Shown one piece after another: positions 964 to 23,970 of a stretch of 64,000 bases of DNA; position 1 is the first letter of the stretch; the number at the start of each line of letters is the position of its first letter. The stretch spans positions 27,441-91,440 of the IMG/VR virus record IMGVR_UViG_3300033475_000008. The stretch is one strand, 5' to 3'. Source of the DNA: a virus. Under the pieces are notes generated by a model. That model did not search any database. It was not told where the DNA came from and saw nothing but the letters and a program-made list of their open reading frames with translations. The position numbers and the translations under genes are program-made.

Positions 964-980
964 CTGGTTGAGATTGGTTG

Positions 981-1009
981 TTTACATCTAGTCGAGATCG
1001 TGGTATAGT
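981..1009 (+). promoter_or_regulatory. sigma70-type promoter (TTTACA-17-TATAGT)
   Basis: Member of a motif family that recurs about 14 times in the window. Confidence 0.75.
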
Positions 1010-1059: not shown

Positions 1060-1135
1060 GAGTCTGTAGCACAGCGGATAGTGCAGCTGCTTCCGAAGCA
1101 GCAGGTCGGAGGTTCGAATCCTCTCAGGCTCACCA
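1060..1135 (+). tRNA. tRNA-Arg(CCG), CCA encoded
   Basis: gctgc-TT CCG AA-gcagc; acceptor gagtctg/caggctc followed by ACCA. Confidence 0.95.
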
Positions 1136-1302
1136 GCGATGCTGGCACCAGGGCATAAGCGTGACGGTCAACCACGGCTGAGAGTCGGACTGATGAGCAA
1201 CGGTCCACCTGGTGGAGGTGCGGGCACTAACGCGTGGTGGCGAGTGTACCAACAGATCCTCACCCTTCTTGCTCTGAGACTTACCACCTCAGAGCAAGAA
1301 GG
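1136..1302 (+). ncRNA. Unrecognised tRNA-trailer structured RNA, copy A
   Basis: Colinear with 1383-1546, with compensatory changes in at least four helices. Confidence 0.75.
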
Positions 1303-1306
1303 TCAA

Positions 1307-1379
1307 GCCTCTGTAGCACAGCGGATAGTGCGCCTGATTACGGATCAGGAGGCCGGGGGTTCGAATCCCTCCAGGGGTA
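1307..1379 (+). tRNA. tRNA-Arg(ACG)
   Basis: cctga-TT ACG GA-tcagg; acceptor gcctctg/caggggt. Confidence 0.93.
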
Positions 1380-1382
1380 CAA

Positions 1383-1546
1383 GTGGTGCCAGTACCGGGG
1401 CACAAGCGGAGGGCAGCACTCCGGCTGAGAGTCGACTCGATGAGCAACGAGTCACCGGGTAGAGGTGAGTGAAGCTAACGGGTGGTGCCGAGTGGAACGA
1501 CAGATCCTCAACCAGTCAGGCCCAGGGCTCACCACCCTGGGCCTGA
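1383..1546 (+). ncRNA. Unrecognised tRNA-trailer structured RNA, copy B
   Basis: Shares GGCTGAGAGTC, ATGAGCAAC, GTGGTG and ACAGATCCTCA with copy A; stems covary. Confidence 0.75.
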
Positions 1547-1552
1547 GTGGTG

Positions 1553-1580
1553 TTTACACCTCATCAAAGTGTGGTAGGAT
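1553..1580 (+). promoter_or_regulatory. sigma70-type promoter (TTTACA-16-TAGGAT)
   Basis: Recurrent motif upstream of the DUF932 gene. Confidence 0.7.
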
Positions 1581-1624
1581 AGAACCACCAGGGTGAACCT
1601 GGCAGAGTGATTGAGGAGACCACC

Positions 1625-2539
1625 ATGACCACGAGTACCATCGAGAACCGCACACTCCCCTGGTCCGGCTTGAGCACCGGTATCACCAGCGAGATCGTTG
1701 ACAGCCAGAACCTGCTCCAGAGCGCTGGCTTGGATTTCGACGTCGCGATCCGACCCATGTGGCGTCGACTCAGTGACGGCAACTTCGTGCAGGACCTGCG
1801 TGACCGTGAGGTCTACCGCACCGACACGGAGCACAAGCTCGGCACCGTGAAGACTCGCTACGAGATCTTCCAGAACCGAGACGCGTTCACCTTCGGTGAC
1901 GAACTCGTCAAGGGCGGTCACGGTCAGTGGGTGGAGGCTGGCTGCCGCAACGACGGGCGCCACGTCTTCATGACCATGAAACTGGGTGAGGGGTTCACCG
2001 TCGCCGGGCAGGACGCCTACGACCTCTACCTCTTCCTCCGCACCAGCCACGACGGCTCCACCGGCGTGTCCGCCCACGTGGTCCCGTTCCGGGTGTGGTG
2101 CCTCAACCAGACGGGACTGGTGATGAAGGAGCACGTGTCCTCCTGGACCGTGCAGCACACGACCAGTCTGGCTCAGAAGCTGACTGAGGCGAAGGCCGCT
2201 CTCCAGCTCTCCCAGTCCTACGGGGCCGCCCTGCAGACGCGGCTGGAAGACCTGGTGAAGAACCCGGTCTCCAAGATGCACGTCAAGTCCCTGCTGGAGA
2301 AGATCGTCCCGGAGACTCGTCCCAAGCGGGAAGAAATGATCGACGGGATCATGAACAACCTGAAGGACTCCCCGAACCTGGAGGGGTACCGAGACACCGC
2401 CTACGGGGCCCTGAACGCGGTCACGGAGTGGTACGACCACCTGAAGACGCAGCGCACCCCGGTGGCCCGCTTCGACTCGATCATGGCGGGTGAGGGCGCG
2501 AAGATGCGCAACCAGCTGGCCCTCGCCTTGGCCGCCTGA
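1625..2539 (+). CDS. DUF932 / phage-plasmid TIGR03299-like protein
   Basis: LGxVxxRYxIFQNxDAF, SHDGS, RVWCLNQ and TAYGALNAVTEW motifs; GAGGAG RBS. Confidence 0.85.
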   Translation: MTTSTIENRTLPWSGLSTGITSEIVDSQNLLQSAGLDFDVAIRPMWRRLSDGNFVQDLRDREVYRTDTEHKLGTVKTRYEIFQNRDAFTFGDELVKGGHGQWVEAGCRNDGRHVFMTMKLGEGFTVAGQDAYDLYLFLRTSHDGSTGVSAHVVPFRVWCLNQTGLVMKEHVSSWTVQHTTSLAQKLTEAKAALQLSQSYGAALQTRLEDLVKNPVSKMHVKSLLEKIVPETRPKREEMIDGIMNNLKDSPNLEGYRDTAYGALNAVTEWYDHLKTQRTPVARFDSIMAGEGAKMRNQLALALAA

Positions 2540-2546
2540 CGACACA

Positions 2547-2576
2547 GACGCCCCGTGCCGCATGGCACGGGGCGTC
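2547..2576 (+). terminator. Hairpin terminator
   Basis: 13-bp GC-rich inverted repeat right after the stop codon. Confidence 0.65.
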
Positions 2577-2605
2577 GAAGTTAGATTACGACTTAAGGAG
2601 TCACC

Positions 2606-2956
2606 GTGGTAAATCGTCGCACGTCTTGGTCCTACAGCTCAACCTCACCACACGGTGTGCCCGGTTTTGGTGGCTTCAGTAACGTGGCTGAACAGTTGAC
2701 CAGTCTGAACGCTGATCGTCGAGTCACCAAGCAAGGCGTGTACATGTGGTGGCGTCGACGCGAGATCACCGGGTTCCCAGAGAAGCACTGCGTGACCATG
2801 CCCAACGGGACTCAGCAACAGTTGTTCAAGCTGGAGGAAACCGAGGAGTGGTTCGAGCGTTACCAGTCACGCAAGTCTGATCGAGCTCGTCGAGTTGACG
2901 AGTTCATTCAAAAGACGCGAGATGATGAGATGAGTGAACACGATGATCAGATTTAG
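2606..2956 (+). CDS. Putative HTH (excisionase-like) DNA-binding protein
   Basis: AAGGAG RBS; VTKQGVYMWWRRR...FPE...LFKLEETEEWF pattern. Confidence 0.55.
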   Translation: MVNRRTSWSYSSTSPHGVPGFGGFSNVAEQLTSLNADRRVTKQGVYMWWRRREITGFPEKHCVTMPNGTQQQLFKLEETEEWFERYQSRKSDRARRVDEFIQKTRDDEMSEHDDQI

Positions 2957-3149
2957 CACGAGAGTCGGTCGGCACTCTTGGGTGTCTATGCCCCTGTGGG
3001 TAGTCGTGGTCCTGCTGCCACTCTACTGGGCACTGGTGATCCTGGAGATCGAGGTTCGAGTCATGTGGTGGCTGCTGGTTGGTCTCGTCACTGGGATCGC
3101 AGCCCTCCTGAAGACATACCACCGTCGAACCGCAACGCGAGTGCCGTGA
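2934..3149 (+). CDS. Small membrane protein
   Basis: Two hydrophobic segments. Confidence 0.5.
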   Translation: MNTMIRFSTRVGRHSWVSMPLWVVVVLLPLYWALVILEIEVRVMWWLLVGLVTGIAALLKTYHRRTATRVP

Positions 3150-3588
3150 GTTGATCCGTGAGCGCGTCCAATCGCTGGTCCACGTGGTCATCTTGCGCAG
3201 CCAGGTGTTGAGCCAGTTGAGTCAATGAGTCCAAGAGGGCCTCGGTGTCCTTGTAGGTCGCCTCAGCTCGCTTGTCAGCCGCAGCTGACTGCACGTTCTG
3301 TCCTACCATGATGATGGACAACAAGACCAGTTGCAGGAAGAAGCTGGCTAGCCACTGCACGATCCCGAACATGCCGCCCTTGATCGCCTGAGGCAACGCC
3401 AGGCAGTCCAGGGCGGCAAACGCGTAGGCGCACCACATGGTCCCCACTACTCGAGTGGTCCACAAGGCGACGGTGGTATTGAACCGCTGTGTCCGGGTCC
3501 CTGTGGGGTGCTGGTCCCGCACCGTGACGGGTCCCTGCCTGAGGCGCTCGTCGTGCCAGGGATGTCTCAGGTGCTCAAAGACACTCAT
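3088..3588 (-). CDS. DUF1003-like membrane protein
   Basis: VGTMWCAY...LQLVLLSIIMVGQN motif with a coiled tail. Confidence 0.65.
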   Translation of the reverse strand: MSVFEHLRHPWHDERLRQGPVTVRDQHPTGTRTQRFNTTVALWTTRVVGTMWCAYAFAALDCLALPQAIKGGMFGIVQWLASFFLQLVLLSIIMVGQNVQSAAADKRAEATYKDTEALLDSLTQLAQHLAAQDDHVDQRLDALTDQLTALALRFDGGMSSGGLRSQ

Positions 3589-4085
3589 CAGACAGCTCCC
3601 AGGTACATGACGAAGAGTTCACGAGGGAAACCGCCAGAGTTTGGTGAGACCGGGGTGAAGGTGCCTGTCCCTGAAGCGCGTTGAGCGAAGAACGCGAAGG
3701 TGTTGAGACCCGTAGTAGGGGCGATGAATGAACCAGCCAGTGGGACAGCGATGCGGCTGGGACCAGACGAGGTAGTAGAAGTCCACTGCGACTGCGCAAC
3801 CAGGGTGCTGGCCGACGTGGGAGTGGAAGCCGAGCCACTGTTGCGGATGTTGAGCAGGTAGATGTCACCTGCCACCGAGGTAAGACCAGTAAGACCGTTC
3901 ATGGTCGCGAGGTACCGTCGACCCGCGATGAGTTGGCACTGATAGGTTCCCAGGACCGCGTCTTGAGTCTCCGTGGTACCCGAGGTGATAGTACCGTTCA
4001 AGGTGGCGCTGGTCGGGGTCTTATTGACTGGAACCGCAAGCTGCGCCGTGAGAGCCAGCAGCATGAGTTCGATCGTGGATGCCAC
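3588..4085 (-). CDS. Minor tail protein
   Basis: Thr/Gly/Ser-rich beta protein at the end of the tail operon. Confidence 0.6.
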   Translation of the reverse strand: MASTIELMLLALTAQLAVPVNKTPTSATLNGTITSGTTETQDAVLGTYQCQLIAGRRYLATMNGLTGLTSVAGDIYLLNIRNSGSASTPTSASTLVAQSQWTSTTSSGPSRIAVPLAGSFIAPTTGLNTFAFFAQRASGTGTFTPVSPNSGGFPRELFVMYLGAV

Positions 4086-4093
4086 GGGTCCTC

Positions 4094-6409
4094 CTAGGCG
4101 AGTTGGATGAAACTACTGGGTGACCCCACTGGGTCTGGCCACGCTCCGCCATAGATGAGTTGAGTGACTGCGTCGTACGTTTCACCGAGGTTGTCAGTAA
4201 GCGCGACGATGAAGGCGTGAAACACTGCCGTGGCCGGTGGGGTACCGAGTTCCTGCACGGCGACTTGCGCGTAGACTGCGGTGGCGGGGAGTGACCCGGC
4301 TGAGGACACGGTGAGCACGGTGGGGGTGTTGGCCGCGATAGAAGTGGTGGAGCCGGCTGTAGTGCTGAGATAAGCGTGAGTGGCGTCGTACCAGTTGATG
4401 TCTACTGAGCACTGCGTGTATCCGACCGGGGTGTAGAACACGGTAGTCGCGGTGTAAACATACCCCTGCTGCACGGGAACGAAGTCACCACTGAGTGCGT
4501 AGACCTGGCTGGCAGAGCCACTCGGGACCACTCGGGCACTTTGAGTCAGTTGCTCATATGTATACAAGGAAGACTGACTGAGGGTGCCCCCGGTGGCTGT
4601 CCACTGACCGAGGCCCTGCTCAAAGTTCCAGGTCTGGTTGAGTGGAAGACCGGGTTGGATCGTGGACTCGCAGAGTCCCATCACGGTGAGGTCCGGGTTG
4701 GTACTGCGAACGATGGTAGTGGTCCTGGCTCCACTGTCCTCCCAGGTGTGGAGGATGGGTCCAATCGCGGTCTGATCAAAGATCTGCAAGGGGAGTGAGA
4801 ATCCACCAGGCGAGAACGGTGTCCACACGTTGACGCCACGCGGGCTTTGCAACACGGTAGGGTTACCCGGGAACACGGCAAAGTCGTAGAGAGTGCGTAG
4901 ATAGTCACTGATGGTACCACCAAGTTGCCGCATGAGCACGTGGTAAGTGGCTCCGTTGGTGAGTCCCGTGACTGGGAGTGGCACCGAGATCCGCGGTGTG
5001 ACCGTGACTTGCATGGTGCTGTAAGATTGGCCGGTGATACCGTAGAACTGCCAGTTGCCACCACCAGCGTCGTTGAGACCAAGAAGGACACCGAGACCGA
5101 CGTAACTGGCGGTCTGCCAACTTGTGTCCGGTCCGCTGTCACTGACTCCGAGTGTGAAAAAGGTGCTGCCCGTGAGTGCCATCAACCCGTAGTCGGTGGC
5201 CTGCAGGGCGGGTATGCCGTCAGCGACGTAAGCGCCGGTTGGGAGAGTAGGACCGTTGAGCCAGGGTCCCAGACTGCCGTTCTCATTGATGACCGCGTAG
5301 TAGCACTCGGTCTGGGCGACACCGTTGTAGCCACCGAAAAGGAAGAGGTAGCCGTTGACTGCGCCGACCCACGTGAACACCGGGACGGTAATCGTGGACG
5401 GGATCGGGGTAGTCAAGTTCCACGCGGTGATCTGCCCGTTTTGAACCTGCGCGTAGTGCACGGCAGTGGTAGTGGTAGCCCCGGTGCTGGTGTAGCCACC
5501 CAACGCGTAGACGTACCCGTTGTACGCTGCCATAGAGTGGTTTTGTATCGCGGTAGGCAGTGCGGTCTGCAATGACCAAGACGCGATGTTTCCGGTGACC
5601 GTGTTAAGTGACGCCGTGTACACCGCACTGATCGGTGACCCTCCCACGGTAGTGGCACCACCGGTGAACACGACAGTAGCGTCTCCGCTGCTGGGATCTG
5701 TGGACACGGTCATGACCGCGCTACCGTCAGTGGGTGCTGGGAGTGACTGTTGTGGGATGGCTTGCTCGAGGTTGCCCACTGAGTCATAGGTGATCGTGTA
5801 GACTGAGCTGGTCGCGGCTCCACCCGCCGCGCCACCGGCCATGAGAATGTAGGGGTCGTAGTACGTGGACACGGTGGAGGTGTTGGCACCACCAGTGCCC
5901 GTGGTGGGGAAGGGCCACGCGTTGGTACTGACCGCGCCGATGTGGAAGCCGTTGAACTGGGCCAGAGCCAGAGGGTTGTTGGTATACGTCAACGCCGGGT
6001 TGGCCGTGCTACTGGGAGTAGGAAGACACGCCGTCGCTGAGAGTTGGTTGATCCAGCTGGCAGGGACTCGAGTCTGTTGCAACACGGTACCCGGGACACC
6101 GGCGTTGTCCGCACACAGGGACACGAGTAGGTCAGCTCCCTGACCCACTGAGTAGAGTGGGATCTGCACGCGACCGATGTTGGTGCCTACCATGGTGAAC
6201 GGTTGATCAAGGTCCAGTGTGCTGAACTGTCGCCTGGCAGCACCACCACCAGTGCCGTTTGGCGTGAGGATAGAGGCCCCTCGGTAGATCTCTGAACTGC
6301 CGTGTGCTCCCAAGAGTTGATTGATCCCCGTGGCATAGAGGGTCGCTCCCGGGTCCTGGCTGAGACCGTTTCGAACCGAGGACCAAGTGGGAGTGGAAGT
6401 GGTAGGCAT
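4094..6409 (-). CDS. Minor tail protein with Kelch-type beta-propeller and C-terminal carbohydrate-binding-like domain
   Basis: YVYALGG and YLFLFGG Kelch repeats; NWNFEQGLGQW CBM-like start. Confidence 0.7.
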   Translation of the reverse strand: MPTTSTPTWSSVRNGLSQDPGATLYATGINQLLGAHGSSEIYRGASILTPNGTGGGAARRQFSTLDLDQPFTMVGTNIGRVQIPLYSVGQGADLLVSLCADNAGVPGTVLQQTRVPASWINQLSATACLPTPSSTANPALTYTNNPLALAQFNGFHIGAVSTNAWPFPTTGTGGANTSTVSTYYDPYILMAGGAAGGAATSSVYTITYDSVGNLEQAIPQQSLPAPTDGSAVMTVSTDPSSGDATVVFTGGATTVGGSPISAVYTASLNTVTGNIASWSLQTALPTAIQNHSMAAYNGYVYALGGYTSTGATTTTAVHYAQVQNGQITAWNLTTPIPSTITVPVFTWVGAVNGYLFLFGGYNGVAQTECYYAVINENGSLGPWLNGPTLPTGAYVADGIPALQATDYGLMALTGSTFFTLGVSDSGPDTSWQTASYVGLGVLLGLNDAGGGNWQFYGITGQSYSTMQVTVTPRISVPLPVTGLTNGATYHVLMRQLGGTISDYLRTLYDFAVFPGNPTVLQSPRGVNVWTPFSPGGFSLPLQIFDQTAIGPILHTWEDSGARTTTIVRSTNPDLTVMGLCESTIQPGLPLNQTWNFEQGLGQWTATGGTLSQSSLYTYEQLTQSARVVPSGSASQVYALSGDFVPVQQGYVYTATTVFYTPVGYTQCSVDINWYDATHAYLSTTAGSTTSIAANTPTVLTVSSAGSLPATAVYAQVAVQELGTPPATAVFHAFIVALTDNLGETYDAVTQLIYGGAWPDPVGSPSSFIQLA

Positions 6410-6416
6410 CAGGTCC

Positions 6417-7157
6417 TCACGTGACAGAGATCAAGTTGAGACCACTGGAGTCATAGGTCAAGGTACGAGAAGAGTACACGTAGTCGTTGGCGGCTTGCGC
6501 AACGGTGTATTCAGTGAGAGCGGTGGGAACGTTAGCCGCGGTACTGACGAGGTCGAGCCAGCGCGCACCACTGTCCTCCCACGTGTGTGCCAAGCTGCCG
6601 CTTCCCAACGTGAGATCGAACACGTTGTAGATGAACCCGTAGGCTTGCGGGGTCCACGTGACACCGTCTGGTGAGGTAGAGGCACCACTAACCTGGTTGT
6701 TCCGGTTCCACGTGTAGAAGTTTGACGGGTCGCCCACCGCAGGGACGACGAGCCAGTACTGCGTGGAAGGTGTCAACATGTTGACCGGGACCGGGATGCT
6801 GACCGTGGCGCCACCTGCGGTAAGGTAAGACGTGGGCACCGTCGTGCTCACCAGCGCTGACCCCGTAGGTGCTGTACCAGTACTCGCGTACACGCTGAGA
6901 GTCATCGGAGTGGGAGCACCCGTGTACCCCAGCGTGATCCTGGCCCGTCCCAGTGACGTGGTGCTGGCAGCGGTGGTGAAAGACTCCGCGAGCCACGTTC
7001 CATTGGTGCTCGTGTTACCAGCGCCCGCGGTTCCCTGTGACGCGAAACTAGTCCCACCGTAGACATAGGTGATCGCGTGACTGCCCAGGAACTGGTTGAC
7101 TTGCGCGGCTAGAGGTTGTGAGCCCGCGGACGCGCCAACCCAGTTGGGAGTGGTCAC
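6417..7157 (-). CDS. Minor tail protein (paralog of 9653-10411)
   Basis: NQFLGSH, LTPSTQYW and HTWEDSGAR motifs shared with paralogs. Confidence 0.7.
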   Translation of the reverse strand: MTTPNWVGASAGSQPLAAQVNQFLGSHAITYVYGGTSFASQGTAGAGNTSTNGTWLAESFTTAASTTSLGRARITLGYTGAPTPMTLSVYASTGTAPTGSALVSTTVPTSYLTAGGATVSIPVPVNMLTPSTQYWLVVPAVGDPSNFYTWNRNNQVSGASTSPDGVTWTPQAYGFIYNVFDLTLGSGSLAHTWEDSGARWLDLVSTAANVPTALTEYTVAQAANDYVYSSRTLTYDSSGLNLISVT

Positions 7158-7175
7158 TTCATCACCCGATCATTG

Positions 7176-7583
7176 TCAGGAAGGGTAAATCATCTGATCT
7201 GTAGTCGTGCTGCTCAAGACGACAGGTGCGTATGAGCTGCTCAATGTTGCGTCTATTTCGAAGATCCATTGACGATGAATTTCAATCGCAGCTTGCGCTG
7301 CAGTTGTCGTTACTCCTAGGTTAGACACAGCAAGCGTGCACAATGAGTTCAACCATGTAGTCAGGTTAGCCTCATAGGTGTCTTGATCGAACCACGAGTA
7401 GTCGTACGTGATGTTGCCAGACTCATCGATCCCGGTATCGAACCCAACGCTCATGATCTGAGCATCTGCAAAACCACCGACATTTTGTCGCCCAGCAATA
7501 TCAGAGACAGGGGTCATTGTCACCGAATAGATGATCGTTGCGACATGCGTGCCATCCGGCAATGTGGGGAAGTGATTAGCCAT
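7176..7583 (-). CDS. Hypothetical protein, lower GC
   Basis: AAGGA RBS; lies in the operon after the tailspike. Confidence 0.6.
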   Translation of the reverse strand: MANHFPTLPDGTHVATIIYSVTMTPVSDIAGRQNVGGFADAQIMSVGFDTGIDESGNITYDYSWFDQDTYEANLTTWLNSLCTLAVSNLGVTTTAAQAAIEIHRQWIFEIDATLSSSYAPVVLSSTTTDQMIYPS

Positions 7584-7613
7584 GATCGTATCCTTATCTA
7601 GATCGATTGCTTG

Positions 7614-9653
7614 TCATGCTGTACGTTCTACCTTGCCACCGACCAACGAGATCGTGTTACTAGCTGAACCAGGGTTCCACGTGACAGCCATAGTCAACGC
7701 GTTTGCACCGGTAGTCGTTATCGTCGTCACTGTCGCCGGGACGGTGATGTAGGTGGCTGCCGTGTCCAACGAAGTAGACGTGTCGATGGAAAGGTTCATC
7801 GTAGTCCACGCGGTTGTCGTGGATCGGAAGTTCACGATGACCTCGTAGAAGAACGGTGAGTTTGTCAAGCTGTTAGGCAACGTGATCGCTGTTGGGATCG
7901 TCGTCAACACCGTACCAGCGACGCCACCCCACAGCATCGTGAAGTTCAACGTGGGGGTACCGTTGTTGGAAAAGATGCCGAATCCGGTCATCTCATAGAT
8001 GGTTCCAGCTGCCACGTCGTTAGCCGGGACCGTGAAAGACTGCAGTGATGTGAGAACGTTAGTGGTAGCGTTCGCGACAGTCACCGTAGTGATCTGTGAC
8101 TGAACCAGGCCACCGATCGTCTGCACGAGACCCTGGGGGTTGCGGGTGTTGACCACACCGGCACTCGCGTAGGCAAGTGCCCCACCGGTGGGGTTGGTAG
8201 TCGGTACCGTGGTCGCGTTGGCGATCTTCAACTCGCCCACACCGTTGTCACCGAGGTCAGTTCCAGACCCGACCAGTAGTGACTTGGTGAAACCATGTAC
8301 CCCAGGAGCGGCACGCAGTGACGTGTAGTCAGCGGTGGTGCCACCACTGTAGAGACCGTCACCCTTGGCGTTGAGGAGGTACCGGTGAAGAGTGTCACCA
8401 GTTACTCGCAGGCCGAGAGCATTGCTTGCCGTCGTGGCTTCTACGAGTACTACGTCAGCGTTCGTGTTACCGGAGACCGCCGTTGAATTGTTGATCCCGA
8501 AGGTACCCGCGGCAGTGCCACTGGTGAGGTTGACCTCGGTGGCGTTTGTCTGTTCACCACTGAACTGCGTACCATTGTCTGCTTGGCAGTCCATGACTCG
8601 GAACTCACCAGTGGAGGTACCGAAGGCGACGTGTGCCCCAGTAGGTGTGGCACCACCGGTGTAGGAACCACGGACAGACTCTGCGATCACGTAACTGTTA
8701 GCCAGTGGTGCGTTCAAGGTCACGCCGTTGGCGATACATGCCACCGCCGTCGAGTTGAAGATCAAAGTGTTCTTGATGGATCCAAACTGTGGACCGAACG
8801 TGAACACGTCCTGCGCCGTCGAGTATCCAGAGTAGAAGCCGCCTTGATAGGCGTGGAAGTTGTCAAAGTGAACATCACGGGCAGTCGTGTCCACGAACAC
8901 GGCTGAGCCACCGTTAACCAGTGACGTCTCGATCTTACCGGAGACAAAGTACAGTGAGTAGGGTTGACCGACGTTGCTGCCGAGTCCTCGTTCTACTCGA
9001 ATCGCGCCTGTCGTGAACTGCTCCCAGCGACAACCAAAGAAGTAGACGTTGTTCACGGTGCTAGAACTGTAGCCGAACCCACTCGTCGCTGCCGAGTTGC
9101 GCAACCAGAGGTTGGGTGCCGTGGTGTTCGCGGTCGTTGAACCAGAGGAATCCCACAGGCAGTTGTAGTAGCGTGAGTCCCAGAACTCAGCACAGTCTTG
9201 ACCGACGTCTAGTGAGTTCGTGAAATGGCAGTCGTGGAAGGCGAGGTTGTCCGCGTAGTAGGTTTGGAACAACGTACCAGTGAGGTTGTTGCCGTGTAAC
9301 TCGAGGCTCTCGAGGGTGCAGTATCGACAGTGCGTGACACCGGTGGTGTCTGTGGCGGGTCCGGACATGGAGATGATGGGACCGGCGGCGGTTCGCCTGA
9401 GGATGGCCGCGTTCTCTCCCGTGCCCATGAGTCGTACCCCGTAGTAGCCGGTGGAACCGTTGTTGAGCACAAGTGCCGCGGTCGTGCTACTGGTCGGTGT
9501 GACTTGGTAGGTACCCGCTGGAAAGAAAAGGATGCCACCACCGCTCGCGGCCACAGCCTGGATAGCCAGGTTGATGGCTGCCGTGTCGTCAGTGACCCCG
9601 TCACCTTGAGCGCCGTAGTCTTGTGGGGTAACTACACCGGCAAGGAAAGGCAT
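7614..9653 (-). CDS. Tailspike / receptor-binding protein with pectate-lyase-like beta-helix
   Basis: DYGAQGDGVTDDTAAI...FFPAGTY N-terminal motif. Confidence 0.8.
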   Translation of the reverse strand: MPFLAGVVTPQDYGAQGDGVTDDTAAINLAIQAVAASGGGILFFPAGTYQVTPTSSTTAALVLNNGSTGYYGVRLMGTGENAAILRRTAAGPIISMSGPATDTTGVTHCRYCTLESLELHGNNLTGTLFQTYYADNLAFHDCHFTNSLDVGQDCAEFWDSRYYNCLWDSSGSTTANTTAPNLWLRNSAATSGFGYSSSTVNNVYFFGCRWEQFTTGAIRVERGLGSNVGQPYSLYFVSGKIETSLVNGGSAVFVDTTARDVHFDNFHAYQGGFYSGYSTAQDVFTFGPQFGSIKNTLIFNSTAVACIANGVTLNAPLANSYVIAESVRGSYTGGATPTGAHVAFGTSTGEFRVMDCQADNGTQFSGEQTNATEVNLTSGTAAGTFGINNSTAVSGNTNADVVLVEATTASNALGLRVTGDTLHRYLLNAKGDGLYSGGTTADYTSLRAAPGVHGFTKSLLVGSGTDLGDNGVGELKIANATTVPTTNPTGGALAYASAGVVNTRNPQGLVQTIGGLVQSQITTVTVANATTNVLTSLQSFTVPANDVAAGTIYEMTGFGIFSNNGTPTLNFTMLWGGVAGTVLTTIPTAITLPNSLTNSPFFYEVIVNFRSTTTAWTTMNLSIDTSTSLDTAATYITVPATVTTITTTGANALTMAVTWNPGSASNTISLVGGKVERTA

Positions 9654-10411
9654 CAGGCTACTCCTGTCAGGTAGTTGTTCGTGTAAGTGAGGTCGCGGGT
9701 CGAGACCACGTCATTACCGCTCTGAGCTTGCGTGGTCTCAGTGATCGAGACGAGTTGGCTTGAGGCGTTGTAGGTGAACTGAGTGATCTTAGCGCCGCCG
9801 TCTTCGATGATGAACTGAACGGGAAGGATCGCGGCAGAGAAGTCAAAGACCTGGTACATGAACCCGTATCCCTGAGGGACCCACGTGGACCCGTCTGTGG
9901 AGGTCAACGCTCCTGAAGCCTGGTTAGATTGTTGCCACACGTAGTATGTACTGCTGTCACCGGCGGGTTGCACGACGATCCAGTACGTGGTGGAGGGTGT
10001 CAACCCGACGAGGATGAGCGGGATCAGGAGGAAGAAGCTACCTGAGTAGACATAGGTCTCCAGCAGTGAGACTGTGGCCAGTGGGTCACCGACAGGTTGT
10101 CCAGCGTTGGACTCGTAGATCGAGACCACCAGGGGAGCGATAGTAGGGGTGAGTGGTGAGCCGCTCACTACCGACATCTGCAAGGTGATGGTGCCGACCT
10201 GGGTCTGTGTGGACGTGGTCACGAGTTGCTGCGCGAGGTAGAGGTTTTCGGTTGACGTGTAGACGGCACTACCGATGATCTGACCCGATTGAAAGACCGT
10301 GTTGTCATAGAGGAAAGTGGCTGAGTGTGCGGCGAGGAACTGGTTGACCGCGCCAGCGTTGGCAGGTTGTCCAATGGTGGCACCCTGGATCACGGGAACC
10401 GTGGTCGCCAC
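9653..10411 (-). CDS. Minor tail protein
   Basis: GTG start right after the upstream stop; paralog of 6417-7157. Confidence 0.7.
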   Translation of the reverse strand: MATTVPVIQGATIGQPANAGAVNQFLAAHSATFLYDNTVFQSGQIIGSAVYTSTENLYLAQQLVTTSTQTQVGTITLQMSVVSGSPLTPTIAPLVVSIYESNAGQPVGDPLATVSLLETYVYSGSFFLLIPLILVGLTPSTTYWIVVQPAGDSSTYYVWQQSNQASGALTSTDGSTWVPQGYGFMYQVFDFSAAILPVQFIIEDGGAKITQFTYNASSQLVSITETTQAQSGNDVVSTRDLTYTNNYLTGVA

Positions 10412-20272: not shown

Positions 20273-20606
20273 CGGGACCACCTCCGGCACCGGAAGGTGC
20301 ACTGGAGCTGCTAGAAGAGGGAGTAGGGAGTGCCTGGAGAACACTGTTGGTGGTTCGGCCGATCTCCAGTGACTGGTAGAGCTGCGTGATAAGAGCATCA
20401 TTTGACTTCTTGACCACGTCATGCGCTTCACGCCAGGTGCGAGCCTGCTCATCCTTCTCCTCGAGTCTCTGCTCATACATCTTGATGAGCCGGTCCACGA
20501 GGGCCTTGGTGAGGAGCTTGCCCGTGAAGACAAGGTAGCCACCCGCGACGACGACTCCACCAGCAGTGGTGTTGGCAGCTAGTGTGAACGTGATCGGCAC
20601 GCTCAT
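20253..20606 (-). CDS. Membrane protein (1 TM + coiled coil), lysis cassette
   Basis: TM-GxL...WREA pattern. Confidence 0.6.
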   Translation of the reverse strand: MSVPITFTLAANTTAGGVVVAGGYLVFTGKLLTKALVDRLIKMYEQRLEEKDEQARTWREAHDVVKKSNDALITQLYQSLEIGRTTNSVLQALPTPSSSSSSAPSGAGGGPDATHVA

Positions 20607-20614
20607 GTCGCTGC

Positions 20615-20893
20615 TTACTCCTCCACGGTGGCTTCACCGCAGCGAGGGCACGTGTCGTTCCAGGCGTTCCAGAGACGTCGGCACTTCTGACAGTACCGGC
20701 CTACCTTAGTGCCGAAGGATTGGAGTGACTGAGCGCTGATGAAGTCTTGTTCCTTAAACTGAGACTTGTTCACCGCGTCTGCGTGCCGATCACTGATCAC
20801 GACTGAGCCACCCGGCTTGTCGGCCTTGTACTTGGTGCCGTCCTTGCAGTCAAAGCCTGAGCAGCCGGGTGGAAGGTTGACGCGTTGACTCAT
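20615..20893 (-). CDS. Zinc-ribbon protein
   Basis: CQKC...CPRCG. Confidence 0.65.
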   Translation of the reverse strand: MSQRVNLPPGCSGFDCKDGTKYKADKPGGSVVISDRHADAVNKSQFKEQDFISAQSLQSFGTKVGRYCQKCRRLWNAWNDTCPRCGEATVEE

Positions 20894-20902
20894 CAGCAGC
20901 TC

Positions 20903-21184
20903 CTAACCACCGGTGGAGATGAATACGCCGACAGGAGTGGGACCAGCCACGGAACCGATGGCCCACAGTTGAGTGCCCTTAGAACCGGGGTACGTGGGAA
21001 TCGTGACACTGGATCCACCAACGATCGCGGCACCGTTGGTACTAGTGACAGTGTTGGTAGTACCCACGTAGACAAACGTGGTGTTGGCTGCAGCCACGCT
21101 GATAGTGACTGAGCCGACACCCGGTGGCACGGTGCACAGCAACACGGCAGTGTTAGGCACGCTACCGGGGATCGGATCGATCAT
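20903..21184 (-). CDS. Small beta-sandwich, putative head decoration protein
   Basis: VYVG..VT..NG motif shared with the two upstream genes. Confidence 0.6.
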   Translation of the reverse strand: MIDPIPGSVPNTAVLLCTVPPGVGSVTISVAAANTTFVYVGTTNTVTSTNGAAIVGGSSVTIPTYPGSKGTQLWAIGSVAGPTPVGVFISTGG

Positions 21185-21663
21185 CAGGTAGTTCCAGCCA
21201 CCACGTTGATCTGACCGCCGACTGAAGTGACGACCGTGACGGCCTCACCAGACACGTGATCGTAGAGTGGTGCCGAGGTGGTCAACGTGGTGGTGGTACC
21301 ACCAGAGATGACCGTGAGGACTTCCTGGCCGCCACCGCTACCGATGAGGATCAACGCACCGTTAGCGATGCCGGTACCAGAGGTCACGGCCACCGTACCA
21401 GTGCCTGCGGTCACGTCTGCCGTGGTCGTGGTCGCTGTCGCGGTCTTGGTGTAGCCACTGGCCGCGTAGAGGTTGACCGGCATGGTGGAGAGGTCGAGGT
21501 TCTGGTTGGGGTAGACCGGGAGACCGTTGGCCGCGGTCACGCCTGCCTGCCCGACGTACACCGGGAACCGACCCAGGTTGCTGAGGAAGAGGTGAGAGGT
21601 ACCTGCCGGCGAGGGGCTGTAGACCAGAGAAGCTGTCGCTGTGATGTTCTGGTTGCCTGGCAT
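21184..21663 (-). CDS. Putative head decoration / fibre protein
   Basis: NLGRFPVYVGQAGVTAANG plus a second beta domain. Confidence 0.6.
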   Translation of the reverse strand: MPGNQNITATASLVYSPSPAGTSHLFLSNLGRFPVYVGQAGVTAANGLPVYPNQNLDLSTMPVNLYAASGYTKTATATTTTADVTAGTGTVAVTSGTGIANGALILIGSGGGQEVLTVISGGTTTTLTTSAPLYDHVSGEAVTVVTSVGGQINVVAGTT

Positions 21664-21696
21664 GTGGTCTCCTGTAAGAGTACGGGTGGTGACACC

Positions 21697-21728
21697 CGCA
21701 CCCGGCCAGCGTGAACTGGCCGGGTGCG
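21697..21728 (-). terminator. Hairpin terminator after capsid/decoration genes
   Basis: cgcacccggccag...ctggccgggtgcg inverted repeat. Confidence 0.6.
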
Positions 21729-21735
21729 GAGAGTG

Positions 21736-22077
21736 TCAGACCACCGAGGCGACGGTGGCCAACGAACCGATGACCCGCGCCGTACCGGACGACGTGATCG
21801 CCCAGATGTCGTTGGTCGTGGTGCCGGTGGTGGCGGTCCAGCCCTGGATGGTCACCTGCTGACCGGCCTTGAGAGCGAGGCCGGTGCTAGCAGTGACACT
21901 GGAGGATCCCAAGAACACGGTAGCCGGACCGATGTTGATGATGGTCACGTCGTGCAACGTAGTCGCCGGATTCAGCGCGGCAAACGCGGTCACGTTCGCA
22001 CTGAAGACATCCACCGTGGGAGTCGTAGTGACCGAACTGACCTGCTGTGCTGGGAGAGAGCCGTCAAAAGTAGCCAT
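21736..22077 (-). CDS. Putative capsid decoration protein
   Basis: Immediately after the capsid gene; strong GGAGG RBS; NIGPATVFLG..VT..TG. Confidence 0.65.
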   Translation of the reverse strand: MATFDGSLPAQQVSSVTTTPTVDVFSANVTAFAALNPATTLHDVTIINIGPATVFLGSSSVTASTGLALKAGQQVTIQGWTATTGTTTNDIWAITSSGTARVIGSLATVASVV

Positions 22078-22092
22078 GTCGTCGTCCTCCTA

Positions 22093-23970
22093 TCAGCTGA
22101 ACGGCGTGGTGTCGGAGACCTGAAGGCCCTGGAGGATGCCCGAGTATTGTGGGGCGTGAGCGCACAGAGCGCCGTACAGGAAGATCGAGTAGCGGAAGGT
22201 CGCGTCGATGACCGGCCACGCGATGGACACGTAGTCCTGCACGCAGGTCATCTCCCAGGCGTTGGCCACGTTGGACCAAGTCTGTGGGAGCTGGTAGGTC
22301 ATCGCCATGGCGGTGCCCTGGGTGAGCCAGGGGTGGACCGTCAGGTTCAGGATCGACTTGGTGATCGGGTTCTGGAACTGGGAGACCGCGGCACCGACCC
22401 GGACACCGGCCACGTCGGGCTGGTCCAGGAAGAGTCGGTAGTTGGTCGCCGAGCCCTGAGAGATCACGTCGTTGCTGAGCCGCATGATGTCGCCACCGTT
22501 GCCGATGAGCTCAGCGGGGTCAGCCTTGAACGCGCCGGTGTTGGTACCGTTGGTCTCCCACAGGCCATCCAGCATCTGGTACACGGCGTTGTAGGAGAGG
22601 TGGGTACCGACGGACTGGTTGACGTAGCCGCCCTGCCAGCCGCTCGGGTAGACACCAGCGCTGGCGGAGGCACCGGTGAGTGTCGGGATGACACCCTCCA
22701 TGCGAGTGCCCTTGCCGGTTCCCGTGTCAGTGGTCGGCGGGTGAGCACCGGCACCGGCTGCGGGTCCCTGGATGGTGATGTACTTGCCACCAACCGGGGT
22801 GCTGGACTGGGTGCCCACGGAGGTGACACCGGCCTGAGTGGTGGCGCCAACCTGCAACCAGAGCTGCGAGTTGGTCGGGGTGGCAGAAGCCGTGGCCACG
22901 TAGATGTTGTAGGTCTGAGCACCGGCGACCGGGGCGATGGCCACGTCGACGACGTTGGTGGTACCCACCGTGGTGATGTCCGTGGACACCGCGCTGGCGA
23001 CAGTCTCACCGTAGTAGTTGACGGCCGTGACCGCGACCACGAAGTGAGCGGGGGAGCCACCGATCGGGGTCTCGTTGCTACCCGCGGTACGCAGGGTGGT
23101 GGTGACCGCACCTGGCGTGGCCAGGGGAGCGCTGGTGCCAGCGAGCATCATGTACTCCTCGCCCAGCATCATCTCCTGGAGGAGGATGAGGTTGGCGAGG
23201 GAGCTGATGTCCTCGAAGCCCTGACCCGCGAACTGAGCGAGGAAGGACAACTGCTCAGTGAGGCCGAAGAACCGGTATGGCACGTTGAGTGCCTGCTCGG
23301 TCTGGTTGCCAGACTGTGGCAGGTTGAGTGGCCAGCTGCTGAAGCTGGTGGAACCGGTGAGCTCCGCGGTGGAGATGTCCAGGACACCCTGGCCACCGGT
23401 ACCGGAGCCGCTGATGCCGGTGAGCACCTTCTCCTGCATCGAGGTACCCTGGCCGGCTGGGCGAGGGAGCTTGTTGCGGAGGACAGTGTAGACCGGGTAG
23501 ATCAGACGAGACGGGGCCCGGAGGTCAAAGGGGACCAGGCCGTAGATGCTGCCGATACCGAGGTTGCCCGCGGTGAAGGACTTCTGAACCGCCTCGGGAC
23601 CACCGGGGAGGCTGCTCATCATCTCGGCCATCTGCTCCGCGATGGAGGGAGCGGTGAAAGCCGACTTCATGAGACCGAAGTTGTCCATGAAGCCCTTGTT
23701 GAGGCCGGCGACGACCTTGGACTTGTGGAACACGCTTCGACTGGTGGCCACGCGCAGGTCCATGGTGGCCTGGTGCGACCGGAGAGCGATCTCACCCTCG
23801 TCTTGGAGGGGCTGGTTACCGGTGACGAAACCGGCTCCCTTGACGAGTTCACCCATGCGCTTCTGGATCATCTCGCCAGTGTGGCTGTACTTGGGTGCCT
23901 CCTCGGTGGCTCCGGCGATCACCGAACCCTGAGAGGTAGGCATCTCCATGGTGGACAGGATGTCTGCCAC
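22093..23970 (-). CDS. Major capsid protein (long; N-terminal pro-region and FN3-like insertion)
   Basis: Position after protease/scaffold; FDL.APS..IYP..T.LRNKLPR; strong codon bias. Confidence 0.8.
   Translation of the reverse strand: MADILSTMEMPTSQGSVIAGATEEAPKYSHTGEMIQKRMGELVKGAGFVTGNQPLQDEGEIALRSHQATMDLRVATSRSVFHKSKVVAGLNKGFMDNFGLMKSAFTAPSIAEQMAEMMSSLPGGPEAVQKSFTAGNLGIGSIYGLVPFDLRAPSRLIYPVYTVLRNKLPRPAGQGTSMQEKVLTGISGSGTGGQGVLDISTAELTGSTSFSSWPLNLPQSGNQTEQALNVPYRFFGLTEQLSFLAQFAGQGFEDISSLANLILLQEMMLGEEYMMLAGTSAPLATPGAVTTTLRTAGSNETPIGGSPAHFVVAVTAVNYYGETVASAVSTDITTVGTTNVVDVAIAPVAGAQTYNIYVATASATPTNSQLWLQVGATTQAGVTSVGTQSSTPVGGKYITIQGPAAGAGAHPPTTDTGTGKGTRMEGVIPTLTGASASAGVYPSGWQGGYVNQSVGTHLSYNAVYQMLDGLWETNGTNTGAFKADPAELIGNGGDIMRLSNDVISQGSATNYRLFLDQPDVAGVRVGAAVSQFQNPITKSILNLTVHPWLTQGTAMAMTYQLPQTWSNVANAWEMTCVQDYVSIAWPVIDATFRYSIFLYGALCAHAPQYSGILQGLQVSDTTPFS

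Follow-up and report, generated by a model that had tools for sequence, protein, structure and literature searches.

A 64,000-nucleotide stretch of a high-G+C virus (here called the window; bases 27441 to 91440 of the 91,440-base IMG/VR virus record IMGVR_UViG_3300033475_000008, estimated to be 89% complete) contains two copies of a compact, previously undescribed non-coding RNA of ~167 nt on the + strand. The copies lie directly 3' of the final two genes, both tRNA-Arg, of a cluster of ~40 tRNA genes. The fold of this RNA is retained with compensatory substitutions in orthologues on contigs of other soil phages, which indicates that it is real and under selection, and the RNA forms a new structural class of a known phenomenon, the RNAs at phage tRNA clusters, such as T4 rnaC/rnaD, GOLLD, and ROOL. 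In our preferred reading, which we hold at a probability of roughly 0.5, it would be a stable RNA that is cut by tRNA-processing enzymes from a tRNA-Arg transcript driven by a phage promoter and that acts in trans. Those proteins of the virus that were searched match isolated actinophages only distantly, with an identity of no more than 34% for the DUF932 protein encoded next to the element.

The tRNA cluster lies on the + strand and ends inside the window. Its 3' part consists of a promoter, a 50-nt leader, tRNA-Arg(CCG), copy A, tRNA-Arg(ACG) (the 5' end of which is 4 nt past the last hairpin of copy A), copy B, a second promoter, and the DUF932 gene (Table 1). The first promoter is sigma-70-like, heads the unit formed by the two tRNA-Arg genes and the two copies, and is conserved in an orthologous metagenome locus, L073. 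The second is of the same class, and seven copies of the motif GTTTACA-N12-16-GTGGTA are present in the window and one more upstream, compared with zero occurrences expected from shuffled sequences. The enrichment of this motif and its placement at 980 and 1552 point to the two tRNA-Arg genes and the element being a unit of their own, driven by a phage promoter. Written as GTTTACA-N12-13-GTGGTA(nnnT), the sites begin at 980, 1552, 38578, 43441, 52097 (- strand), 56585, and 63830 (- strand) of the window and at 2453 of L005; such a phage-specific promoter class could serve to map the transcription units of this phage.

TABLE 1 Features at the tRNA cluster's 3' end, in window coordinates
Feature	Positions	Strand	Evidence or detail
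Phage promoter, GTTTACA-N13-GTGGTATAGT	980-1009	+	Scan, 10/12 with TG; -35 TTTACA, extended -10 TG-TATAGT
tRNA-Arg(CCG)	1060-1135	+	ARAGORN; Rfam tRNA 67.4 bits; discriminator A1132, CCA encoded at 1133-1135
Copy A, lineage-specific paralogue	1136-1302	+	Model R1, 192 bits; first base G1136
Copy A H1	1139-1143/1152-1156	+	
Copy A H2	1160-1163/1173-1176	+	
Copy A H3	1179-1182/1259-1262 plus 1184-1186/1255-1257	+	
Copy A H4	1187-1192/1201-1206	+	Loop AUGAGCAA at 1193-1200
Copy A H5	1207-1209/1217-1219	+	
Copy A H6b	1225-1227/1244-1246	+	
Copy A H6	1231-1233/1240-1242	+	
Copy A H7	1264-1278/1288-1302	+	
Copy A pairing 1	1146-1150/1210-1214	+	CACCA (H1 loop) with UGGUG (H5 loop)
Copy A pairing 2	1234-1239/1282-1287	+	GUGGUG (H6 loop) with UACCAC (H7 loop)
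tRNA-Arg(ACG)	1307-1382 (tRNA 1307-1379)	+	ARAGORN, Rfam; discriminator A1379, then CAA
Copy B, conserved orthologous slot	1383-1550	+	Model R1, 200 bits; first base G1383
Copy B H1	1386-1390/1399-1403	+	
Copy B H2	1407-1411/1419-1423	+	
Copy B H3	1426-1429/1507-1510 plus 1431-1433/1503-1505	+	
Copy B H4	1434-1439/1448-1453	+	
Copy B H5	1454-1456/1464-1466	+	
Copy B H6b	1473-1475/1492-1494	+	
Copy B H6	1479-1481/1488-1490	+	
Copy B H7	1512-1527/1535-1550	+	
Copy B pairing 1	1393-1396/1458-1461	+	
Copy B pairing 2	1482-1487/1530-1535	+	
Copy B H7 and tail GUGGUGUUUA, terminator-like end of the tRNA-Arg unit	1516-1556	+	Scan: 12 pairs, 9 G-C
Second promoter, for DUF932 gene, GTTTACA-N12-GTGGTAGGAT	1552-1580	+	Promoter scan
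DUF932 gene	ATG 1625 to 2539	+	Pfam DUF932, E 1.6e-42

Copies A and B are 65% identical overall, 72% identical in the core, and 44% identical in the terminal hairpin, and they share a common fold of seven helices and two loop-loop pairings. On the 5' side are the hairpins H1 and H2, followed by the long-range helix H3, which includes an invariant A-C mismatch and closes a junction bearing H4 (loop A-Y-R-AGCAA), a short H5, and a two-part H6. The terminal hairpin H7, of 15 to 16 bp, lies 3' of this junction. An extra 3-bp helix, H6b (alignment columns 91 to 93 with 110 to 112; CAC/GUG, AGC/GUG, and CGC/GCG), was recognized because of the paired changes 1473 A>C and 1493 T>C in the orthologue from metagenome run X3, together with the L073 sequence. 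The first three bases of the element (GCG, GUG, or GGC) are variable and unpaired, and H1 begins at base 4. Compared with copy B, the H7 stem of copy A is wholly replaced at equal length, with the loop motif and all other helices kept. A coding reading of the region was rejected: the open reading frame at 1139 to 1462 crosses a tRNA, and substitutions within the stems compensate one another.

Several details of an initial annotation, made from the sequence of this phage, needed correction. It had each copy begin 4 nt after the tRNA discriminator base, which holds for the window and for two relatives with a CCA tail (V3 and X7), in which tRNA-Arg(ACG) has the change 1381 A>C, but not for L073, where the tail is CA and the spacing is 3 nt. 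Its start of copy B stands, but the base of the terminal hairpin reaches position 1550 rather than 1546. The segment ggc-TGAGA-gtc, described as invariant, is present in both copies, but L073 reads GAC...GCG, and the local hairpin (ggc-UGAGA-gtc) was dropped on the L073 sequence for a long-range stem; the suggested pairing of UGAG with CUCA is this stem, kept in L073 with a change from G-C to G-U. The inner three pairs of H3 (GUC/GAU) are broken in L073 and are treated as uncertain, the third pair of H5 is not conserved, and H1 of L073 could close to a 4-nt loop that would compete with the first loop-loop pairing.

Pairing 1, between the loops of H1 and H5, occurs as CACCA/UGGUG in copy A and UACC/GGUA in copy B, a covariation that the initial annotation had correctly pointed out, and as UACCA/UGGUA in the orthologues from X3 and X7 and CACAC/GUGUG in L073. 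It covaries at three positions, and its X3 and X7 form results from the changes 1397 G>A and 1457 G>T. Pairing 2, between the loops of H6 and H7, had likewise been noticed as a complementarity of GUGGUG to (U/C)ACCAC in the terminal hairpin loop, and it is invariant (GUGGUG with YACCAC) in all of the sequences except for one G-U versus G-C. It is kept despite the replaced H7 stem of copy A, which argues that the loop sequence itself matters.

The compensating stems first noted between the two copies (atgc/gcat versus gtgc/gcac, gtg/cac versus ggag/ctcc, ggactg/cggtcc versus gactcg/cgagtc, and cgc/gcg versus cgg/ccg) are all present, as are the fixed loops ATGAGCAA and GTGGTG. RNAalifold applied to copies A and B gave 44 pairs, 16 of them changed on both sides, and both copies form more stable folds than their own shuffles (z scores of -2.5 and -3.1). 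Copies A and B and L073 were then aligned to the model with both pseudoknots written in. In this alignment, which contains few, related sequences and which leans towards the structure through being fitted to the model, there are 53 pairs and 157 pair cells, 96.8% of which are standard pairs; 20 of the 53 pairs are doubly changed, compared with 1 to 3 when the 3' partners are slid by 1 to 3 columns, and none of 500 shuffles attains the observed value on any of five measures. Six G-U cells would be A-C if read on the opposite strand, which places the RNA on the + strand. Compensatory changes are also found in the contig from runs X1 and X3: in H1, 1386 G>A is paired with 1403 C>T, and in the X3 H4, three substitutions in the 5' arm are matched in the 3' arm, which has lost one base and gained another, so that the helix reads GGACCG/CGGUCU.

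The covariance model that the initial annotation had proposed building from both copies (R1) has only these two matches in the whole 91-kb virus record, with a next score of 12 bits, and it identified an orthologue in L073. Close metagenome homologues of the DUF932 protein are 79% and 75% identical, followed by others at 54% or less. Among 80 metagenome loci from a DUF932 alignment scan, only L073, with the protein identity of 75%, contains the RNA (positions 9745 to 9905; R1 92.6 bits, E 1.7e-21). It occupies the slot of copy B, with tRNA-Arg(ACG) immediately on its 5' side and, immediately on its 3' side, a TTTACA...TATGAT promoter and the DUF932 gene; in the slot of copy A is an 80-nt spacer of unrelated sequence. 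Logan contigs from four soil metagenomes were compared with positions 1020 to 1620 at 80% likeness, with uncovered parts left unused as evidence. A 22,078-nt contig (runs X3 and X1), which encodes P0002, has 9 letters between the two tRNAs, followed by an uninterrupted copy-B orthologue in which there are 42 differences from the window and 2 indels; the V3 sequence is a partial reconstruction of this orthologue from those differences. A 5,853-nt contig (X4) has 80 letters where copy A would be, and a 397-nt contig (X7) has 84 letters in that place and a copy-B orthologue with 27 differences.

In three related soil phage contigs, the copy-B slot is kept, after tRNA-Arg(ACG) and before the promoter and the DUF932 gene, and copy A is missing. 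The initial description of two copies behind tRNA-Arg genes thus applies to this phage but not to these three relatives, which have only the tRNA-Arg(ACG) copy. The absence of copy A from the relatives makes it a lineage-specific duplicate in this phage in which the fold has still been kept; its core is nearest to that of the X3 orthologue (77%). Among the orthologues, H7 is 92 to 95% identical and the core is 65 to 80% identical. The known members are five sequences from one narrow clade, one of them partly reconstructed and one partly seen, and the fold is present in at least four phage lineages plus one paralogue.

Wider searches returned no additional member. A blastn search of positions 1136 to 1560 against 50,697 phage records matched the tRNA alone, a megablast search of positions 1600 to 9000 found nothing, and the DUF932 protein used as a query in IMG/VR yielded no relatives. 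Among the sequencing runs listed as containing the stretch, none was an RNA run, which has no bearing on whether it is expressed. Pattern scans of IMG/VR gave 1, 66, 6, and 0 loci; the single locus of the first scan lies within coding sequence away from any tRNA, and the covariance model upheld not one of the 72 loci from the second and third scans. In a pattern scan of GTDB genomes, 80 of 106 loci were searched and none was confirmed. Model R2 found nothing besides L073 in 79 metagenome loci of DUF932 relatives and, with filters off, no member in L076, L083, or L080, which bear tRNA arrays. The more distant L076 has the tRNA-then-DUF932 order and contains neither a hairpin nor the element. 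All members so far belong to one narrow clade of uncultured soil phages.

No family in Rfam 15 matched the element in searches of positions 1 to 1700, copy A alone, or L073 alone, either at the gathering score or at an E value of up to 10, and the low-scoring output was generic hairpin noise, such as miRNA precursors. With its conserved fold and no Rfam 15 counterpart, the element bears out the proposal of a new compact class of non-coding RNA. ARAGORN and the Rfam tRNA clan called the flanking tRNAs and not the element, in which there is no cloverleaf with a T arm. The initial annotation had been unable to fit an HDV, hammerhead, or TPP consensus, and the searches and core features agree. The hammerhead core is CUGAUGA...GAAA around three stems; CUGAUGA is found only in copy A, the same columns read CGAUGA in copy B and GCGACAA in L073, and there is no Rfam hammerhead match. 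The CUGAGA of the TPP riboswitch is present, yet no Rfam TPP match was obtained at an E value of up to 10, and the element lies behind tRNAs rather than in a 5' untranslated region.

A striking parallel in position is in phage T4, where the annotation places rnaD (71053 to 71171; species 2, 119 nt) and rnaC (70908 to 71046; species 1, 139 nt) beside tRNA-Arg (71173 to 71247). There, too, a phage tRNA cluster has at its distal end a tRNA-Arg that is directly followed, on the strand of the tRNAs, by two tandem small structured RNAs of similar size. T4 rnaC possesses paired ends and a T arm of the tRNA type (GGUUCGAAUCC), both of which the RNA described here lacks. On T4 positions 69800 to 73200, model R2, run with filters off, scored no more than 3.3 bits, giving no homology to rnaC or rnaD. 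A 12-base identity (GUCGGACUGAUG) between copy A (1184 to 1195) and T4 rnaD (L265 ~1331 to 1342, minus strand) was dismissed as chance, as the stem covaries in the other copies.

GOLLD and ROOL, structured RNAs of phages or prophages, likewise often lie close to phage tRNA islands and are joined by kissing loops that covariation had first revealed; these contacts proved to be intermolecular (PMC12286853). They are much larger, however, at 500 to more than 800 nt in cages of 8 to 14 molecules, compared with ~167 nt here, and their Rfam models gave no match at the gathering score or at an E value of up to 10. The phi29-type pRNA is a phage RNA of 120 to 174 nt with two complementary loops that covary. 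It differs from the element in fold and genome position, is not linked to tRNAs, is known only from phi29-like phages, and had no Rfam match here.

The gene order, with a tRNA 3' end before copy A and an RNase P site 4 nt after it, makes excision by tRNA processing the simplest route, and release by tRNA maturation, one of two options raised by the initial annotation, is plausible. Transcription from the phage-specific promoter would produce tRNA-Arg(CCG), copy A where present, tRNA-Arg(ACG), and copy B as a short unit. Each copy would then gain its 5' end when the upstream tRNA is matured at its 3' side, copy A would gain its 3' end when RNase P cuts at the next tRNA, and copy B would gain its own by termination at H7. 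Once freed, the RNA may be a stable protein- or RNA-binding particle that acts in trans, with the two loop-loop contacts either locking the monomer or joining molecules. The element would be the counterpart in high-G+C soil phages of T4 rnaC/rnaD and of GOLLD and ROOL, and not a tRNA-cleaving ribozyme.

The far greater conservation of H7 than of the core, together with the adjoining promoter, also fits a role in cis as a terminator or insulator. The element, and H7 above all, could be a 3'-end module that ends transcription of the tRNA-Arg unit, shields this unit from the DUF932 promoter, and provides an exonuclease-resistant cap that stabilizes the tRNA precursor, with no function once detached. 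The copy B H7 was flagged as terminator-like (tail GTGGTGTTTA) and the -35 box of the next promoter follows immediately; the unit always ends with the conserved slot, and it is H7 that is nearly identical among orthologues. Copy A, however, has the full fold between two tRNAs and no T-rich tail (UCAAGCC), and a terminator there would block tRNA-Arg(ACG). A conserved pseudoknotted core of ~125 nt also exceeds the needs of a terminator or a 3' cap, and L076, with the same tRNA-then-DUF932 order, does without both hairpin and element. We therefore consider a purely cis-acting module rather unlikely, and a role in trans is favored because copy A keeps its fold between tRNAs without a T tail.

The GUGGUG loop of H6 could pair with either the H7 loop or the CACCA end of tRNA-Arg(CCG), and the RNA would then be a sensor or decoy that reports or buffers the processing or charging state of the tRNA, much as NCCA ends are recognized by T-box bulges and the L15 loop of RNase P. 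The sequence GGCUCACCA occurs both at the 3' end of tRNA-Arg(CCG), including its CCA (1127 to 1135), and at the H7 apex of copy B (1526 to 1534); the corresponding identity in L073 extends over 11 bases (9581 to 9591 and 9881 to 9891), and no copy departs from GUGGUG/YACCAC, including copy A, with its wholly replaced H7 stem. This 9-mer, found post hoc, is nevertheless only weakly significant, with 6 occurrences in the window versus 1.2 expected. The mimic lies in a hairpin loop rather than at a free 3' end, the loop of copy A differs (CUUACCA), and a switch between alternative pairings is not evident, making a sensor improbable.

The other option raised by the initial annotation, a ribozyme that processes the tRNA, fared worse. 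Theta ribozymes are short HDV-type nested double pseudoknots (P1, P2, P3, and P1.1) with G1 in P1 and are found mostly in gut phages. They lie immediately 3' of phage tRNAs with G1 at the tRNA 3' end, within ~1 nt of tRNA ends that mostly have no CCA (PMC10879173). The element resembles them in lying directly behind phage tRNA genes and starting with G, and its compact pseudoknotted fold has the size and complexity of a small ribozyme, so that one could imagine a new self-cleaving fold that releases the tRNA 3' end, as theta ribozymes do, through a cut close to or at its own 5' terminus. Here, however, CCA, CAA, or CA intervenes, the spacing from the discriminator varies (3 or 4 nt), and a cut at G1 would yield no mature 3' end in two of the four arrangements. 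The variable and unpaired first three bases place the putative cleavage site outside the fold, no Rfam ribozyme model matched at an E value of 10, and the other ~38 tRNAs of the array manage without such an element. An HDV or theta fold in particular was rejected, as neither copy nor L073 had an HDV-family match at an E value of up to 10, the H1 loop is 6 to 8 nt, and there is no P3 hairpin and no room for P2 and P3. Self-cleavage is accordingly judged very improbable. A decaying duplication or neutral spacer without function, to which the narrowness of the family and the lack of conservation of other long array spacers in L073 might point, is hardly credible given the doubly changed pairs, the near-complete pairing, the invariant loops, and the occurrence of the fold across lineages and in a paralogue, so that the covariation near-refutes it.

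Covariation alone cannot separate loop-loop contacts that lock a monomer from those that join molecules. By analogy, both loop pairs may be intermolecular as in ROOL and GOLLD, or the GUGGUG loop may instead capture tRNA CCA ends, but we regard either as doubtful. Were the contacts intermolecular, this ~167-nt RNA would be the smallest tRNA-island RNA to form an RNA-only dimer or ring, and copies A and B could coassemble through GUGGUG/YACCAC, with private specificities at the other pair. Knowledge of T4 rnaC and rnaD goes back ~50 years, and cryo-EM structures are now available for GOLLD and ROOL; to our knowledge, none of them has a known function. Structured RNAs beside phage tRNA clusters are thus a recurring puzzle, to which the element adds a small unrelated fold from high-G+C soil phages. 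It is well defined, with two testable loop-loop contacts and a natural pair of paralogues, and at ~167 nt it is easily synthesized, probed, and imaged. It could be a tractable model for the roles of tRNA-cluster RNAs and for intra- versus intermolecular kissing loops, and its value is limited by the narrow distribution.

Other parts of the tRNA array also contain unusual sequences. The spacers between tRNAs at 63 to 171, 246 to 342, and 488 to 632 of the window and at 9590 to 9669 of L073 are 80 to 150 nt long, rich in G+C, and contain hairpins; the R1 search of the virus record found the long array spacers to be unrelated to the element, and several are not conserved in L073. Positions 633 to 808 have tRNA-like acceptor, D, and T arms (GUGUCUG...CAGACAC and GUGGGUUCGAAUCCCAC) with ~125 nt in place of the anticodon arm. 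This stretch was called by neither ARAGORN nor Rfam and could be a tRNA bearing an intron or insertion or a tRNA-like non-coding RNA. The interval from 488 to 890 is missing from L073, where tRNA-His directly precedes tRNA-Arg(TCT). Positions 838 to 949 match the Rfam model of YrlA (Y RNA-like) weakly, at 27.8 bits versus a gathering score of 69; the match shares sequence with tRNA-Arg(TCT), and the tRNA-like portion of the model is its probable cause. Among ten large open reading frames upstream of the array, Pfam identified replication, recombination, and methylase genes and no RNA ligase, CCA-adding enzyme, or Ro60-type protein. Just upstream of the array (L005 10462 to 13698; G000 20461 to 23697) are a UDP-galactopyranose mutase-like gene and a gene for a 705-amino-acid protein in which a C-5 cytosine DNA methylase domain is fused to an FkbM-type methyltransferase domain.
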